From: a virus
Length of the DNA stretch: 64,000 nt
Reading direction: 5' to 3' (one strand)
IMG/VR virus record: IMGVR_UViG_3300001390_000008
Span: 29,805 to 93,804 of that record
Part shown: positions 18,031 to 26,158 of the stretch, piece after piece
Layout: the number at the start of each line of letters is the position of its first letter
Numbering within the stretch: position 1 is the stretch's first letter
Notes under the pieces: generated by a model
Told to the model about the DNA's origin: nothing
Seen by the model: only the letters and a program-made list of their open reading frames with translations
The model's database searches: none
Program-made: the position numbers and the translations under genes

Positions 18031-18709
18031 TTTTACTAACCTAATAGCAGATCTTAATATTATATTCTCTTTTTGTATTCTTTCAATATCTACTTCCATC
18101 CCAGCAGCCCACGACATTAAAAGATTAAAAGAATCTTCTACATCGGTGCCTTTTACTGCTTCCTGTACATCAAAAATATGGTCTTGTATACTCATGTTTG
18201 CCACTCCTTGCTAATGTATTAAAAACTGTGTGTGCAGTAATCGGTATCCCAATATACGGAGGCCCACGTATTTATGTCTAAATGCCCCATATAATTACCT
18301 CACCTTTGCTAGCCATATTCAGATATTATTTCTATTGCCCTTTTTCTTAGTAGCTTAAGACTGCTACAGATTATTTCCTCCTCAATATTTCCATTAGCCT
18401 CATACTGCAATTTGTATAGATTTACATCTATTTTAGAAATATCCACTGAATAATAAGAGAAGCCCTCTATATCTAATGTAGCTTTAAATATCGTTATTAA
18501 TGCCATTTGTTTTACTGCCCCGCCTTCTGCATATCTAGATATATTTAGTCAATGTGGTGGATTACTTTATCTGCTATCTCACTGGCAATTTCAGATATAT
18601 ATTCTTTTTCTTCACAGTCGCTTCTCTCAATTGCCTTCATCTTCACTTCCTCGTGTAGTTTTAGCGAACATGTTGCATTACAGTAATGCTCGGTATGTAT
18701 GCGTGGCTG

Positions 18710-19426
18710 TTAGGCATCAGAAATTCTGTCCTTTGCCGTATTAAAATAATCATCATCCAATTCAATACCAATAAAATCTCTACCTGTTTTTTTGCAGGCC
18801 GCGCCAGTTGTCCCAGTCCCCATAAATGGGTCTAAAACAACTGAATCAACTTTGCTAAATAATCTAATTACTTTTTCTGCTAATTCCTGCGGAAATACCG
18901 CGCCATGGTCTTTGCTTACTTTCTTTCCGCGCTTTATACTCCAAACATTTGAAAGCACCCCTCTATCAAACTGTGCAGTTTTAAATGACCTGCTTTCAGG
19001 CGCACTGTTTTGAAGCACAATCAAAACCTCAAATTGGCTATTCATTACGCCTTTCCCTATTGCAGGCTGCGCGTTTAACTTATCCCATATAATAAATTCT
19101 TTTACTTTGCCGCTAAATTCACCAAGCAGTTTAAAAAGAGCAGGTTTGTTACCTGTGAGGAATTGCACATTGTAAAAAACCAAATCAGAAACCCTTAAAC
19201 ACTCATTTAAAACTTTCTTGTTAAACTCAAAATAATCGTCAATAGGCAAATTATCGTCAAAGCTTTTATATTTTGTACTTATCTCTTTAACTATCTGCCT
19301 AGAGCAATATTTACCATTTCTAATCCTGAGATTCATATTGTACGGCGGGCTGGTTAATACAATATCAACACTTCCGCTTGGTATTTCTTTCATTTTTTCT
19401 AAACAATTACCTCTTAATAATTTCAT
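18710..19426 (-). CDS. DNA methyltransferase, N4-cytosine/N6-adenine beta class
   Basis: TSPPY motif IV, HGAVFP, VLDPFMGTGTT motif I, FIGIEL. Confidence 0.92.
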   Translation of the reverse strand: MKLLRGNCLEKMKEIPSGSVDIVLTSPPYNMNLRIRNGKYCSRQIVKEISTKYKSFDDNLPIDDYFEFNKKVLNECLRVSDLVFYNVQFLTGNKPALFKLLGEFSGKVKEFIIWDKLNAQPAIGKGVMNSQFEVLIVLQNSAPESRSFKTAQFDRGVLSNVWSIKRGKKVSKDHGAVFPQELAEKVIRLFSKVDSVVLDPFMGTGTTGAACKKTGRDFIGIELDDDYFNTAKDRISDA

Positions 19427-19431
19427 TTGTT

Positions 19432-19782
19432 TTACTGCCTCGCCTTTTTTGCTATTTCTACTAGCTCATTCCAGTCACGATGGCCTGTGTTACAATGCTT
19501 TATAGCTAAAACTAATAGTCTACCCCGCTCAGGTTCAAGAGAGAATATGTAATTTCTAAGCCCCTGCATTTCTGCGGTCTGTGTTCCGGCCCCGCCGCAG
19601 ATACACTTCTTTCCGCTTACTGGCTTTCCCTGCCCGGCACAAACACTACACATAGCCGACTCTTTAGTACACTCTATGTGTCTCAATGTAAATTCAACCA
19701 TTTCATCCGCACCTAGATTATCCCATCTATTTAACTCATCTGCCTGCTTATTCCAGGCTTCTATAATATCGTTAATTTGCAT
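19432..19782 (-). CDS. hypothetical protein with CxxC..CxC cluster
   Basis: 116-aa ORF; its ATG lies in the degenerate core of an attC-like site. Confidence 0.6.
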   Translation of the reverse strand: MQINDIIEAWNKQADELNRWDNLGADEMVEFTLRHIECTKESAMCSVCAGQGKPVSGKKCICGGAGTQTAEMQGLRNYIFSLEPERGRLLVLAIKHCNTGHRDWNELVEIAKKARQ

Positions 19783-19878
19783 AGTAATTAGCTCCAGCCG
19801 ACGTAGTGTGCGTCAGTATTTTCGTTAAATTTAAGCTCATGTGCCCCGCCCATTACGCGGCTGAGCATGGCGTTATAT
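19779..19878 (+). mobile_element. integron attC-like recombination site (near complete, R'' degenerate)
   Basis: GCATAGT-AATTA-GCTC(C)AGCCG(A)CGTAGTG ... CATTACG-CGGCT-GAGC-ATGGC-GTTATAT; hairpin with two extrahelical bases. Confidence 0.7.
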
Positions 19879-19894
19879 TGCTCGTTCCCCGCTT

Positions 19895-19930
19895 GGACTG
19901 CTTCGCCGCCAGTTAATTCAGTCGTTATAA
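19895..19930 (+). mobile_element. attC-like right half
   Basis: GGACTGCTTCGCCGCCAGTTAATTCAGTC-GTTATAA. Confidence 0.55.
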
Positions 19931-20467
19931 ACCTTTCTGCTCAACAGTAACAATAGTATCGTTATGCCATCCGCCATGCGGTACTAGCAGTATTTCAAGT
20001 TGCTTAAAACCCGCTGTTTTTCCTATCCCACCGCTATTCCATCCGCATGTAATCGCCTTCCCTTTTGGCCTTACAATTCTGCTGATTTCTTTTTTCATAC
20101 TGCCCCAAAAGCTTGCTTGTGTTGTTTGCATATTCACACTCATATTAAGCGACTTATAACATTCACTTACTTGTCTTGGCGAATATGGCGGGTCAAAAAG
20201 AACAGTATCAATACTTTCATCTTCAAACATTTTTAAAAAATCAAGCGCATCTAAATGGTGACATGTATCAAATTCAGTATTCAGGTCATTAGTCACGGTT
20301 GCTAGTTTATTACTATTTGCAAACGGATCAATGCTCTTGCCTGATAAATGCCTTTCTATTAACTCTCCTATAGGTTTTATACTAAATGTGTTTTTATTAG
20401 GCATAGCCCAAACACGGCTTATAACAAGTCGCTCAACCGGACTCGTCTCTTCATTCGCTTCACTCAT
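19925..20467 (-). CDS. putative adenine-specific DNA methyltransferase
   Basis: SIDPFAN, LDALDFL, VLFDPPYS motifs. Confidence 0.75.
   Translation of the reverse strand: MSEANEETSPVERLVISRVWAMPNKNTFSIKPIGELIERHLSGKSIDPFANSNKLATVTNDLNTEFDTCHHLDALDFLKMFEDESIDTVLFDPPYSPRQVSECYKSLNMSVNMQTTQASFWGSMKKEISRIVRPKGKAITCGWNSGGIGKTAGFKQLEILLVPHGGWHNDTIVTVEQKGL
20419..20467 (+). mobile_element. attC-like left half
   Basis: TTATAAC-AAGTC-GCTCAA-CCGGAC...TTCGCTTCACTCA. Confidence 0.65.
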
Positions 20468-20889
20468 TTCACCATGCTCCTTGCTCTCCTGAGTAGTTTA
20501 TCTACGCCCCCAAAAGAAGTGGGGTGCACGAATCTTGGGTTTTCTATTACGGCAATCATCTCACCTATCAGCTTGCCTCGGGCGGCTATTTCTTCCTCGT
20601 GCTCTGCCCTTGCCTCCTCAAACAGTCGATTACCATCAAAGGTTGCCGCTTTGTAGCCTTTTGACCAATCCTCTTCAATCTGCTTCATGTGTTCTTGCAA
20701 CCTTGTAGCTGACTCTTCTGGTTTGTTCAGAGTCTCTACCCCTTTTTGCAGGGCCATATACAAAAAACTATTTATAGACATGTTCCTATGCTCTGCCTCC
20801 CTTTTTATCTCACCATATTCTACTCTGGGCATCCTGATGGCCGCTGTAGAGAGTGCCCGTTTACTTGTTAGAGGTGCTTGTTTAGTCAT
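20464..20889 (-). CDS. Arc-like ribbon-helix-helix DNA-binding protein
   Basis: AIRMPRVEYGEIKREAEHRNMSINSFLYMAL matches the Arc/Mnt pattern. Confidence 0.65.
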   Translation of the reverse strand: MTKQAPLTSKRALSTAAIRMPRVEYGEIKREAEHRNMSINSFLYMALQKGVETLNKPEESATRLQEHMKQIEEDWSKGYKAATFDGNRLFEEARAEHEEEIAARGKLIGEMIAVIENPRFVHPTSFGGVDKLLRRARSMVK

Positions 20890-20908
20890 ATCAATTTCCA
20901 GTGTTGTG

Positions 20909-22948
20909 TTAACCAGAATCGCTCAGGTACATGATAACCCTATTATGGTTAAGTCCGAATTTATCAACTATAGCGAAAAAAGCCTCGTCGTTATAAGCTA
21001 TAGATTCACCTCGATGCAATCTTCCCTGGTTTTCTGCTTTCATCCCCTCAATCTCTGCCAGAGCACAAACTGCCTGAGAATTAATAAATGCTATCAGCTG
21101 CTCTTTGTCCATATCAATCACCTGCTACCTGTTCGTAATCTTTACATTTCTTCGCGGCAATAATATGCTCCCTATATTCCTCTAGTGACCCATAATTATC
21201 CATTTCCCAATAATTTTTATTGCATGATATTGTCGCACCATACCCAGGGGTAGCTTCAGAATACCCTGGGCAACCCATGTCAAAATAGAAATGTTTGCAA
21301 AACACACATAAAACATCTTCACTCATATCAATCTCCTAATTTATTAGCTAATTCCCTGAAATGTATACCGTCCAACCTCATGTCCTCGGCTAACTTATCA
21401 AGATAATGCTCAAGCTTCCGTGTGCTTATCGTTTTCTGGGTTTCGCAAATGCCATATAAAACATTAAGCCTGGTGCCTGACACTAAAGAAGCCGCCTTCA
21501 CTACGGCGTTTCGTTTCACATATGTCATATCAATCTCCTGAACTATCTGTTTGCTGACTACGCAGCTGCAAATACTCGATCAATCCTAATGCCTCCTTAG
21601 CAACATCATTAATTTGTATAGTGCAATAGCCATCTCTGCCCAGTTCGTCCTCACCATAAATTTCATAATCATTAGATTCAATCTGGTATGGTTCTGCTGC
21701 CCCCAGCTCGGCTAGCATCCATTTAATAGATGCAATGTCATCTTCAGTCATATCAGCCTCCTGTCTCTAGAAACCTCTGAATTATTTCAAAATCTTCAAA
21801 TGGCATTTTGTTGCCTACTGCCTCCAGCTTTGCATAAGCCGCATCTTCCCACGTTTGGTTTCGCAGAATAGACAATTCAAAGGCTAACCGCCTCACGATA
21901 TCCCTGCCCGGCTCCAACATGTTTTCATCACTCATTAGCCGCGCTATTTCTATCTCAGTTACTTTTGTTTGCAGTTGTTTACTATCCATATCAATCTCCG
22001 AATAGCTCTATTAATTCTCTTGCCCTTGTACTTGCACAATTACAAGTAAATGGGTGCTTACATATTTTTGGCCCCCCGCAATTACTGTTATATAGGTCTT
22101 CGAGGGCGGAATACAGTTTGGCAATATCACGGCTATATTGCTTCGTCATGATTAAGTATTTTTCTTTGTAGTCGATTTCATATTCTGGCATATTAGTCCC
22201 CAAATTTACCCTATATTGCTATATGTGGGTACCTCTTCATCTACTGCTGTCTGTGGTCTTGGCCCATTCTTTTTTTTCCACCATAAGCTATATTCTTCCA
22301 GCCATTCAAGTGTGTATGGGTTAAAATAACTATCATATTTTTTTGAATAGATCTTATCCACCTGCCTACGATACCCGCACCAGGGGCAATATTTAAAAAT
22401 AGGGGCAGTGTACTTAGGTGCGGATTCGCGGCCACAACAATATATCGTCATATCCTCTATTTCATGTATGCCTATGCGCCAATCAGGGCAATCACAAGTT
22501 TTCAAATGTATTCTATTTTCCATTACTTACCACCTGTATGTAATTTATGTTTAGGTCTATTGCGTAATTGCCATTTAGTTTTTTTAGGTCTGGCATACTC
22601 TATAATAGTGCGAGGGGGCAGGCCCCAAGCTATCTGTATTCCGTGCAGTAGGCATATAGGTATATGGTGCCCCGTATTATTTTTAATTGATCTGGAGAGC
22701 AAATACGCCCGCCACTCTATACTGTATGGTTCAATCATATTGTGATTACTCTACTCTACCGCCTCGTGTTGATTAAGCTCATCACATTCAATGCAAACAA
22801 AACTACAGTTTTCTTTTTTACACCCGACACCCCCAAAGCTAATGGAGAAAGGTTGTGTTGAATTATTTGCAATCGGATAGATCTGCGCGTTAGGGTTATA
22901 ATCAAGTAATTCTTTTATCAAATCTCGTACAGTCATATTAATCTCCAA
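20909..22948 (-). other. array of ~9 small, translationally coupled hypothetical CDSs
   Basis: ORFs 20909, 21114, 21328, 21530, 21753, 21991, 22206, 22523, 22751; several joined by GGAGATTGATATG-like junctions. Confidence 0.65.
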
Positions 22949-23230: not shown

Positions 23231-26158
23231 TCAATGTCTATCCGTATCACTTCGCTCACCTGCATCACTTCTGCCGTCGTCATGCATATCACTATCTGTC
23301 CCCCCATTTGGCATAACCCACGAAGAGGCCCTACTAAGTAATAAATTATATGCACCACATAAAGAATCGGCTGCATCCTTTGCCCCGATTATACTATGAT
23401 CAACTTTTCCTTCTTTACCTTTATTTTCATCAAATTCTAAAGACAATAATTCTTCCAGTAGTACGGGCTGATTATATAGCAGTATGCGCCCATCATAAAA
23501 GGCATCACGTAATTGGCGGTAAGGGGTGGGGGATCTGTCTACGGATATAAGGCCGGTCTTCATCCCCTGTCTCTTCCATGCTTGCCTGGATTCAACACTA
23601 TTATACCCATCATAACTGACCGCCTTAATAGGATACCCATATGTGCTATATAGTAGCTTTATCCATGAACGTATATTTGCCACATCTACTTCATTACCGT
23701 GGTCTGGCTGAACGGTCATACACATTTCCATGGATACAAGGGGCAGTGCCTCCTGCTCCCCGTCCACCCTCTCTACCCATTGTAGGCCGTCAAACCTAAC
23801 CATACATATCCCTGTTCTATCTTGTGTAGAGCTTAAATCAATATGTACATATCTGGGTTTACCTGGATTACTACAAAAATGCCCCTTAATAGGTAGAGGT
23901 AGGCCTTGGTGCCTTAGTATTATGTTATCTTCCGGTAAGAAGGACTTTAAGCCCGCTTCTTCGCCTTTTGCCACACATTGCATAACCTTCTGGGGCTGCC
24001 TTATAAAAGGCGATATAGCGTTCGTAGAGAGGCCGGATATATCCCGTAGTGCTTTGGTGGGGTTTTTAACGAATTGCTCTCTGTACTCCACGGGCACCTG
24101 TATAACGCGGCCCCCAATAGCCTTCTCATTATCCCCCATAACACGCACAGACATAGCTGCATCACTACCAATAAACAAGTTAAACTTATCCCCACAAAAC
24201 CTGTTCTGCGGAACTACTTCATATTGAGCATACCCGAACACAAAAGTAGTGCTTATGTGCTCCCTGCGTACAATCTCTTCTAAGCGATCGGTGTAGTCCC
24301 CCTTGTACCTTGTAGAAGATGAGCAGATAATCATCCCCACCTGTGGGCCTGGCAGGGTAAACCGGCTTTTACGACGTGTGCTAAGGGCATCATGTATAGC
24401 TTCTGCCTGATCATACTTAGATGATCTGCCCATACTGACGCGTACCTTCTTTGATCTCTCAATAACACTCATGAAATTTACTTCATCTATTAGAGCAAAA
24501 ATCATAGCTTCGCCTAATGCCGCATCATCATCTGCCCCGCCTGGAACCACACGAATGTTTTGTTCTACAAAATACATTTCAGAATCTAATAGTTTATCGG
24601 GCCTCATGTTCTTGCGAAACCACGGCATAGTCTCTATATACTTTCGTAGGGGGGCATAAACTACTTTCTTGGTAACGTGTGGTTTTGCCGCTTGAATAAT
24701 AAATAGAATAGAAGTAGCAGAGGGTAGGCCCCAATAGGTCTGGGGGGTTTTCATGCACCCTAATATATGCAAATGATAGGCTATTGTAATTTTAGCTAAT
24801 TCCGTGTTGTGTGTGACAGTAAAATCGCCCAGCAAATATCTATGATCCCCCCCAATTACAACCCCATAATAATTACCCTTTCCTATAGGCTCTACCTTAA
24901 ACCCTGTTACAAGTACATCTTTTTTCTGCCCCCTTACCGGTGCCTTTTTATTAATTGATAATGTAGGTATTAGATGACAATCGCCACTTATAAATACACG
25001 ATAATAGATGCCAGTAAATCCTGTTGATTTTATACCTTTAATTACCTCTTTCTTATATGCAGCGAACCCTAATGATCTGCATAAATAAACAGCCTGATCT
25101 GCAAAGCATTCATCCTTAGCTATAAAATCAAACCCACCACATGATAGGCGGCCACCCCCGTCTAATATCCCGGCTAATAATTGTAATCTATTTTTCCTGC
25201 TGTTTATTAAATACTCTTTTGGTATCCTTCTTCTATGTAGATAATCCGTTAATGACTCTCTTATATCGGCAAATCCCAAAAGGCTAATATCCCATGCACC
25301 TCTGTCGTAGTTTACCTGTCCTATCTGTACATGCTTCTTTACCCGCTCTAGGCAAAGTAATTTATTACCCCCCAAAGACAGAGCACTACGGTATTTACAA
25401 CCATCCGCTAAATACAGACCTATGGTGTAAGGGTCAAATACTTTAATCTCCAGGAACTCTACGCCTACACGATATTGTTTATGCAAGTGTTTAAATGTCT
25501 TTGATTTATTCAAATATTCTTTTACTGTAATATTTACTATATCCCCTGCATACCTGTCCCCACTTCTTATTTTAGTACGTTTAAGGCTCAGTATATGATC
25601 TGCATTACATGTCCATGATTCCCCTTTAACAGGGGTAATACGGTACATATCGCCATAACTTTCATTAGCTTGTAATACTGGTTGCGGGTTTGACTCCGGC
25701 CCCATTAAAACATCGCCCTTGTTTATATTCTGGGATAGCTTTATACCCCCATCATATAATAGTACAGGGACGTCCACCCCTAAGCACTTTCCGGTACCTG
25801 TTGCGCGAGAGAATATAGCCTGGTCATAATGTTTATCCGCGCCTTTCCACCAATGGCTATTAAGCTCAATAACCGCCTCTCTTACTTTAGGCCATAGTTT
25901 TAGATCTGTGGAGCCCATAAACTGATCAGAATCTATAAATTCTTCTATGGATACGGGGGGCTGTTTTAAGTGTTCTATGAAATTTAAAAAGTTATGGTTA
26001 TTATGCATTGCTGCTTGCTTTATTGCATGAACATAAAATTCAGCAAACATTTTATTATTTAATGTACTAACAGAGGCCTCGGCAGCATCTATCATTAACT
26101 GCGCTTTTCTTGTCAGATTACCGCTCTGGGTAGCCAACTTTCTTTTACGTCTAGTCAC
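23231..26158 (-). CDS. terL: terminase large subunit, intein-containing
   Basis: Walker A ATGTGK|T split by an intein, Walker B ALIDE, C-terminal nuclease YVHIDLS...KVDH...KDAADS. Confidence 0.88.
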   Translation of the reverse strand: MTRRKRKLATQSGNLTRKAQLMIDAAEASVSTLNNKMFAEFYVHAIKQAAMHNNHNFLNFIEHLKQPPVSIEEFIDSDQFMGSTDLKLWPKVREAVIELNSHWWKGADKHYDQAIFSRATGTGKCLGVDVPVLLYDGGIKLSQNINKGDVLMGPESNPQPVLQANESYGDMYRITPVKGESWTCNADHILSLKRTKIRSGDRYAGDIVNITVKEYLNKSKTFKHLHKQYRVGVEFLEIKVFDPYTIGLYLADGCKYRSALSLGGNKLLCLERVKKHVQIGQVNYDRGAWDISLLGFADIRESLTDYLHRRRIPKEYLINSRKNRLQLLAGILDGGGRLSCGGFDFIAKDECFADQAVYLCRSLGFAAYKKEVIKGIKSTGFTGIYYRVFISGDCHLIPTLSINKKAPVRGQKKDVLVTGFKVEPIGKGNYYGVVIGGDHRYLLGDFTVTHNTELAKITIAYHLHILGCMKTPQTYWGLPSATSILFIIQAAKPHVTKKVVYAPLRKYIETMPWFRKNMRPDKLLDSEMYFVEQNIRVVPGGADDDAALGEAMIFALIDEVNFMSVIERSKKVRVSMGRSSKYDQAEAIHDALSTRRKSRFTLPGPQVGMIICSSSTRYKGDYTDRLEEIVRREHISTTFVFGYAQYEVVPQNRFCGDKFNLFIGSDAAMSVRVMGDNEKAIGGRVIQVPVEYREQFVKNPTKALRDISGLSTNAISPFIRQPQKVMQCVAKGEEAGLKSFLPEDNIILRHQGLPLPIKGHFCSNPGKPRYVHIDLSSTQDRTGICMVRFDGLQWVERVDGEQEALPLVSMEMCMTVQPDHGNEVDVANIRSWIKLLYSTYGYPIKAVSYDGYNSVESRQAWKRQGMKTGLISVDRSPTPYRQLRDAFYDGRILLYNQPVLLEELLSLEFDENKGKEGKVDHSIIGAKDAADSLCGAYNLLLSRASSWVMPNGGTDSDMHDDGRSDAGERSDTDRH
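24806..25786 (-). mobile_element. intein (327 aa) with LAGLIDADG-type endonuclease
   Basis: CLG... start, CNADHIL block B, GLYLADG and LAGILDGGG, ...VTHN end, +1 Thr. Confidence 0.92.

Follow-up and report, generated by a model that had tools for sequence, protein, structure and literature searches.

Clusters of attC sites without an integrase (CALINs) occur in virulent phages, with DNA methyltransferases as typical cargo (Qi et al. 2023, PMC9892861); integron sites in phages, and methyltransferases as their cargo, have been reported only recently. The attC sites of virulent phages that are recombined by IntI1 carry the boxes TATAAC and GTTATA(C/T), and PH101_attC2 from Pseudoalteromonas phage H101 is one of the sites recombined by this integrase (PMC9892861). 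That study discusses neither gene orientation relative to attC polarity nor starts inside attC. In other cassettes, a recombination site is known to take part in translation: ORF-11 in attI1 lends a translation start to cassettes, and partial loss of an attC fuses cassettes (PMC8876359). A limited literature search found no antisense cassette ORF that is translated through its own attC arm. Here we describe such a candidate in a stretch of 64,000 nucleotides of viral DNA (the window), whose segment at 18.7–20.5 kb would be the relic of an integron cassette array without an integrase (CALIN-like), captured by a phage of about 94 kb. In all probability the array was built back to front, one attC arm being translated as the leader of a methyltransferase and the decayed sites being reused.

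The window is part of a virus record of 93,804 bp that is estimated to be 98% complete. All genes surrounding the locus are on the (−) strand and form a dense block upstream of a large terminase gene. The central one (19925..20467, −) encodes a small putative DNA (amino-)methyltransferase of 180 aa (MTase), in which the core begins at about V15/I16 and residues 1–14 are an added leader. Upstream of it is a phage gene for a 141-aa protein (20464..20889, −), with its 3′ end over a decayed attC and its TGA overlapping the ATG of the MTase. Downstream are the gene for a Cys-rich protein of 116 aa (19432..19782, −), with an SD (GGAG) and an ATG inside an attC relic, and a second DNA methyltransferase gene (18710..19426, −; N6_N4_Mtase, PF01555, E 3.7e-37), the Cys-rich ORF thus sitting between two methyltransferase genes. 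The cargo of the array would be of the anti-restriction type, comprising both of these DNA methyltransferases and the small Cys-rich protein. The Cys-rich protein matched no Pfam or PHROG family and had no relatives among the viral contigs; it contains two CxxCxGxG-like motifs (CSVCAGQG and CICGGAG), reminiscent of DnaJ-type zinc fingers. The PHROG matches of the 141-aa protein are weak, and no relatives of it were found in the viral contigs. Since the search of the viral contigs with the neighbour proteins found no relatives, there is no empty site for comparison. A megablast of the region against phage records gave no match, an Rfam search of 18500–21200 gave no family, and the base composition shows no island at the locus. 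The TAA of the N6_N4 methyltransferase lies in GCCTAAC (18709–18715; G|TTAGGC on the top strand), a candidate box of the textbook type found by eye only; the covariance model described below found no attC downstream of this gene. Two further features were noticed in the block: a run of small genes at 20887–22946 (−), with products ending in ..GD or ..GG and overlapping stop/start signals, and a terminase-like ORF of 975 aa at 23231–26158 (−), which by eye appears to be split by an intein-like insert (..GTGKC.. to ..THN).

The MTase matches the phrog_11619 family, annotated as "DNA methyltransferase" (E 3.6e-54), and a Pfam search with its 180 residues gave no match. Its homologues number more than 7,900 (26 phage records), and the catalytic motif D92-P-P-Y95 is invariant among those aligned. 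Relatives with 55–66% identity are found in phages of Staphylococcus, Streptococcus, Erwinia, Serratia, Yersinia, and Croceibacter. The family (166–180 aa), which has neither a Pfam model nor a solved structure, is unusually conserved across phages of Gram-positive and Gram-negative hosts. No shared synteny was seen among the 80 viral MTase loci compared. The AlphaFold model (pLDDT 75.7) is poorly defined at residues 1–25, and the leader is likely to be a disordered tail that the enzyme can do without. A Foldseek search with the model found the class I SAM-methyltransferase fold, with Trm11, TrmN, M.BseCI, and N4-cytosine methyltransferases among the matches (probability 1.0, TM only ~0.5); tRNA m2G enzymes are among the closest folds, and a PDB sequence search returned no solved relative. 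DNA is the putative substrate, from the annotation, and the enzyme would most likely methylate phage DNA and so allow escape from host restriction. Inside the ORF, a 13-mer at 19996–20008 (−), TTTAAGCAACTTG, coding for F-K-Q-L, is identical to the Colwellia-type attC arm consensus; it is the fifth match of the attC profile (E 5) and may be either a chance occurrence or an internal remnant.

Protein alignments show that most homologues of the MTase, including all 80 viral loci, begin with M-x-I-(N/S)-R-V-W-x-M-P-N, and thousands start with M-x-I-N-R-V-W. The corresponding residues in the window, L14-V15-I16-S17-R-V-W, lack the Met and are preceded by MSEANEETSPVER; the leader MSEANEETSPVERLV, translated through the attC arm, stands in place of the native Met. 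The tblastn matches begin at residue 13–16. Both comparisons confirm what had been expected from a reading of the sequence only, namely that homologues align right after the leader. N-terminal extensions occur only in the nearest relatives (P0002, P0003, P0004, P0006, and P0008), where they differ upstream and converge on ..(P)x(E/D/Q)R(L/I/V/F)(V/A)I. A regular-expression search for [VL][ED]R[LIV]V[IM] leaders in the phage genome and the 80 MTase loci returned only the query. At the DNA level, homology to the closest contig (L082, 85% amino acid identity) runs from about 16 nt before G|TTATAA to just past TTATAAC at the stop, and the sequence outside is unrelated. In this contig, the same TTATAAC covers the MTase stop and precedes a weak attC (13.1 bits), and weak attC alignments are found on the gene strand at both ends. 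The most likely translation start of the MTase in the window is the ATG at 20467, because a good AAGGAG site lies 9 nt upstream of it and it forms an ATGA overlap with the TGA of the upstream gene; M22 is the alternative start.

The whole genome of 93.8 kb was scanned on both strands, without gaps, with the two 25-nt arms of PH101_attC2. The best matches genome-wide, at 20419–20443 (20/25) and 19854–19878 (21/25), are both on the gene strand and flank the MTase gene on either side, the runners-up reaching 16–18/25. An nhmmer profile of 88 attCs, none of them from the window, placed its top genome match at 20420–20443 (E 2.8e-4) and its second at 19853–19877. In addition, a covariance model was made from 36 attC sites (17 pairs, 9 with compensatory changes); both models were built from genomes other than that of the window. 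The covariance model recovers untrained sites at E 1e-8 to 1e-5 and gave no match in the 630 kb of the 80 viral MTase loci without the leader. In the phage genome, its sole match is 19779–19878 (−), at 24.3 bits, a score far under the 65–100 bits of bacterial attC sites; the E-values, about 0.003 for a search space of 125 kb and 1e-4 for that of the 4-kb region, are rough due to a shortened calibration. Its second-best alignment covers 20419–20502 (−) at 9 bits (E 0.83), with one arm near the consensus and the other gone. The window therefore has one site with a significant full-length attC score (19779–19878), one significant half-site, and one weak remnant.

As judged by sequence, the arms of the window, near-identical to those of PH101_attC2, are members of a genuine attC family, the Alteromonadales-type chromosomal integron attC, which includes the validated sites of phage H101. 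A 21-nt arm pattern common to the window and H101 was found in five viral contigs and at no fewer than 120 positions across GTDB genomes, chiefly of Colwellia, Pseudoalteromonas, Psychromonas, Alteromonas, Shewanella, and Vibrio, where it forms the end of hairpins of 92–100 nt arranged in dense arrays. Three of the four complete genomes tested contain an integron integrase with a TIGR02249 score of more than 450 bits, and in L291 three attC sites lie directly beside such an integrase. Assignment of a host or donor from the attC subtype was considered and rejected, the GAGCGACTT subtype occurring in several phyla. A viral contig (L166, 54.6 kb) contains at least six attC matches within about 4 kb, a phage-borne array with ORFs on both strands.

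The best-preserved part of the locus is the attC arm at 20419..20443 (−). Its bottom strand consists of the L-arm, a spacer, and the box G|TTATAA, and encodes residues ~9–17 of the MTase (SPVERLVIS); on the (+) top strand, the same arm reads R″ TTATAAC, spacer, and L″. The rest of this attC, the former loop and the distal arm (20444..20502, −), is decayed; the upstream gene has its last 13 codons there, and the stretch also contains the AAGGAG and, in the ATGA overlap, the MTase ATG. Together, the remnants of the attC encode about the first 16 residues of the MTase. At the other end of the MTase gene, the box G|TTATAA (R′ of the top strand; 19924..19930, +) marks the second cassette boundary and contains the MTase stop. 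Next to it is a possible truncated second attC remnant (19879..19923, −), a weak one made up of a loop motif and the box at 19924–30: here AGCGGGGAACGAGCA agrees with the loop motif of the 98–100-nt attC class at 14/15 positions (empirical p ~0.01), within the 47 nt that separate the MTase stop from 19878, a segment missed by the models. The near full-length relic at 19779..19878 (−) keeps the L stems with their bulges, and the hairpin of its L arms has a z of −2.4, its R boxes no longer pairing. One of these boxes, G|TTATAT on the top strand (19872–78), is intact, and the other reads ACTATGC in place of GTTATGC, a GTT to ACT change at 19779–85 that destroys the GTT crossover triplet. The ATG of the Cys-rich gene (19782–19780) aligns to the ATG of the GTTATG box of the model, here ACTATGC, and its SD-like GGAG is found in the attC arm, where the consensus ..TTTAAGC.. 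has become CTGGAGC. Several details of the sequence-only reading hold at this level: the MTase stop does lie in the left box, its N-terminus reads the bottom-strand arm, and the ATG of the next gene is indeed in an attC box, albeit a decayed one. Its proposal that the MTase starts at the hairpin apex fares less well, as the derivation of the N-terminus from an attC arm stands and the position at the apex depends on the 9-bit alignment of 20419–20502.

That reading had also presented the segment as an excisable cassette. A cassette still excised and reinserted at its complementary boxes by a host integron integrase would explain why G|TTATAA and TTATAAC are intact and why the arm at 20419–20443 equals the family consensus at every conserved position; phage attCs of the PH101 type are recombined by IntI1 (PMC9892861), and the hosts of this attC type carry integrases. 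This alternative is nevertheless improbable. A folded attC needs both arms, and 20419–20502 has one arm and yields no hairpin on folding (z −0.03); 19879–19930 is at best half a site; and 19779–19878 carries the GTT to ACT change in one box. The phage has no integrase of its own, as neither PF00589 above the cut-off nor TIGR02249 was found in the record (98% complete by estimate). Excision is thus unsupported, and low or no integrase-mediated recombination is predicted from the sequence. As every site in the window has lost at least one arm or box and an integrase is missing, the locus is best called a domesticated relic.

The orientation of the cassette depends on the polarity of the attC model. 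In L291, the integron integrase is on the (−) strand, the first cassette ORF on the (+) strand, and the attC model matches on the (−) strand. Over about 120 bacterial loci, 50,537 ORF codons near the arms are on the strand opposite to the model and 9,093 on the same strand. Because of the L291 array and this strand bias, the model was taken to represent the bottom strand, and its bulged bases are in the 3′ arm. The attC matches in the window are all on the gene strand, so that the genes of the array are antisense to the polarity of a classical cassette. On the top (+) strand, the MTase cassette begins at G|TTATAA (19924|19925) and ends in its own attC with R″ TTATAAC (20419–25). A classical cassette has its ORF on the top strand, followed at the 3′ end by the attC; here the attC is at the 5′ end of the gene. 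The inverted cassette suggested earlier is thus borne out by the integrase array, the bacterial ORF strand counts, and the strand of the window matches. Were the polarity misassigned, the gene would lie on the top strand in the classical orientation; attC sites are near-palindromes, and a true site scored on its reverse strand retains about 28–33 bits, which gives this idea some ground. We consider it very unlikely, since it is contradicted by the integrase-adjacent array in L291, by the 85:15 ORF strand bias, and by the bulged bases in the 3′ arm of a model that matches the window on the gene strand only.

The same design was found at other loci. In the metagenome contig L086, an MTase homologue is in a canonical cassette, with the attC on the opposite strand, and a strong attC (31.7 bits) has a loop containing GGAGGAG and an ATG. 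The ORF that reads out of this attC encodes MTTETQTTTESEAGGRAASAVERLVI|WIDARYELPH, that is, ..AVERLVI|WIDARYELP. A full HMMER search with this ORF found DUF551-like relatives that begin with MEWISVKDRLP and align from residue 26–27; a word-based homologue search had returned only the ORF itself, and Pfam gave nothing for it or for the ORF of L164. The segment L086:170-1440 thus shows a classical-orientation MTase cassette followed by a reverse-built DUF551-like one, their attC sites facing each other. In the viral contig L167, the ORF encodes ..SPIKPLVM|LPCPFCGG, with a Lar restriction-alleviation domain (PF14354, E 7e-9) from residue 27. In the viral contig L164, a small membrane-like protein begins with MSEDTESPFKRLVM|RVWWW (..KRLVM|RVWWW), and its stop is in a GCATAAC box; the one homologue of this protein retains KRLVM. 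L088 contains, all on the bottom strand, an N6_N4 methyltransferase, an attC, a phrog_11619-type methyltransferase, an attC, and a further N6_N4 methyltransferase, with stops in ATATAAC boxes and a middle gene that has its own start. In this contig (L088:150-900), the three methyltransferase genes are separated by short attC-like hairpins of about 60 nt.

ERLVI/RLVM-type leaders had been anticipated on unrelated proteins, and they are found beside attC matches on the DUF551-like protein of L086, the Lar-like protein of L167, and the L164 protein. In bacterial arrays with the attC type of the window, ORFs that leave the arm in this frame number 7, vs 3 and 6 in the other frames, of 113; as they are not commoner than in the other frames, the design is rare in these arrays. 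Its generality in phages rests on few cases. A "phage-adapted" class, as the layout had been termed, is accordingly only suggested: the genes of H101 are inverted, but the methyltransferase cassettes of TJE1 and P12002L (PMC9892861) have the canonical orientation, unlike the window, as does the MTase cassette of L086.

The boxes that delimit the segment carry little information by themselves. GTTATAA at 19924–19930 and TTATAAC at 20419–20425 are complementary, as had been reported for the segment ends, and the right one codes for V15-I16-S17 (GTT ATA Agc). However, the TTATAA that they share is palindromic, the window has 10 copies of GTTATAA vs 23 expected, with a third copy within the MTase ORF, and 43% of random 543-bp segments of the phage genome show a perfect inverted repeat of 7 nt within ±50 nt of their ends. 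The two heptamers taken alone are not above chance, so that their presence and complementarity stand and the meaning ascribed to them alone does not. Neither of them fits a strict RYYYAAC/GTTRRRY scan. That consensus is too strict a filter, because the boxes of validated phage attC sites are TATAAC/GTTATA, and the window boxes GTTATAA, TTATAAC, and GTTATAT (19872–78) fit the TATAAC/GTTAT(A/G) boxes of the attC family. By these sequence comparisons, the significance of the heptamers comes from the flanking sequence. An ordinary gene with chance AT-rich heptamers and an ordinary lineage-specific N-terminal extension, free of integron ancestry, would agree with the chance level of the heptamers, the unmet strict consensus, the N-terminal region without a hairpin, and the lack of an integrase, and was rejected as scarcely tenable after comparison with the validated phage attC sequences, given that the genome-best matches to both validated arms flank the MTase gene on one strand, that an independent profile finds the arm (E 2.8e-4) with a full-length covariance-model match next door, that unrelated proteins beside strong attC matches are also preceded by this arm, that the failed consensus is stricter than the validated boxes, and that the covariance model is silent over 630 kb of viral MTase loci.

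The organization and origin that we propose for the back-to-front array are as follows. Its genes lie on the attC bottom strand, and each attC therefore precedes its gene, the reverse of the classical layout, so that every gene has its own attC in front and the box of a neighbour behind. The cassette boundary G|TT falls at codon 15 of the MTase, where the native M-x-I-N-R-V-W start is missing, and translation, most likely from the ATG at 20467, passes through the conserved attC arm and yields the leader, fused in frame to the core. The MTase stops in the opposite box, and the following gene now takes its SD and ATG from the next attC relic. The array probably entered the phage genome through insertion by a host integron integrase, possibly at a GTT secondary site, a route reported in 10.1101/2022.09.11.507474, or through illegitimate recombination. 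Afterwards, the sites would have decayed for recombination and the parts serving translation would have been kept.

The locus is a fossil, an example, and a lead rather than a working system. It displays the anatomy of a cassette segment after capture, in which the recombination hairpin appears not to be simply lost but to be reused as coding sequence, ribosome site, and start and stop codons. The back-to-front layout together with the ..ERLVI / ..RLVM leader constitutes a traceable signature; the leader is present on at least three unrelated protein families and could reveal cassette-derived genes where the hairpin has decayed past detection by integron finders. If the layout is general in phages, it bears on how cassettes without promoters or start signals are expressed, and on the flow of anti-restriction genes between host integrons and phages. 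A more speculative possibility, less likely than not, is that reverse-built cassettes are a distinct functional class favored in phages, the attC bottom strand acting as a portable translation-start module. The loop of such a module would supply the SD and an ATG, its arm would serve as a short leader, and translation could alternatively begin at the ATG of a GTTATG box. Any ORF that has been trimmed in its first codons could thus be expressed at whatever position the cassette is inserted, and phages and host integrons would exchange anti-restriction genes (methyltransferases, Lar) in reverse-built form.

Among the described systems, the phage CALINs (PMC9892861) share with the window arms of the H101 attC2 type (21/25 and 20/25), the absence of an integrase and, in H101, genes on the attC bottom strand. 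They differ in that the window sites are decayed and partly overwritten, with one arm translated as the N-terminus of the cargo. The sedentary chromosomal integrons of Colwellia, Pseudoalteromonas, Psychromonas, and Vibrio have attCs of the same sequence and structure family, beside TIGR02249 integrases; in contrast to the window, about 85% of their coding sequence is on the top strand, ORFs out of the arm are rare, and their sites score 65–100 bits vs 24. The reverse toxin–antitoxin cassettes of the Vibrio cholerae superintegron are likewise antisense to their array, whereas they have their own promoters and other cargo, and starts inside attC are not described for them in the literature searched. 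The resemblance to ORF-11 and fused cassettes (PMC8876359) concerns translation, as in both a cassette ORF takes its SD, start, or N-terminus from the sequence of a recombination site, and in fused cassettes partial attC loss also welds neighbours together. In those cases, the sequence is provided by attI or by the upstream cassette, in the classical orientation, whereas the ORF of the window runs antisense through its own attC arm.
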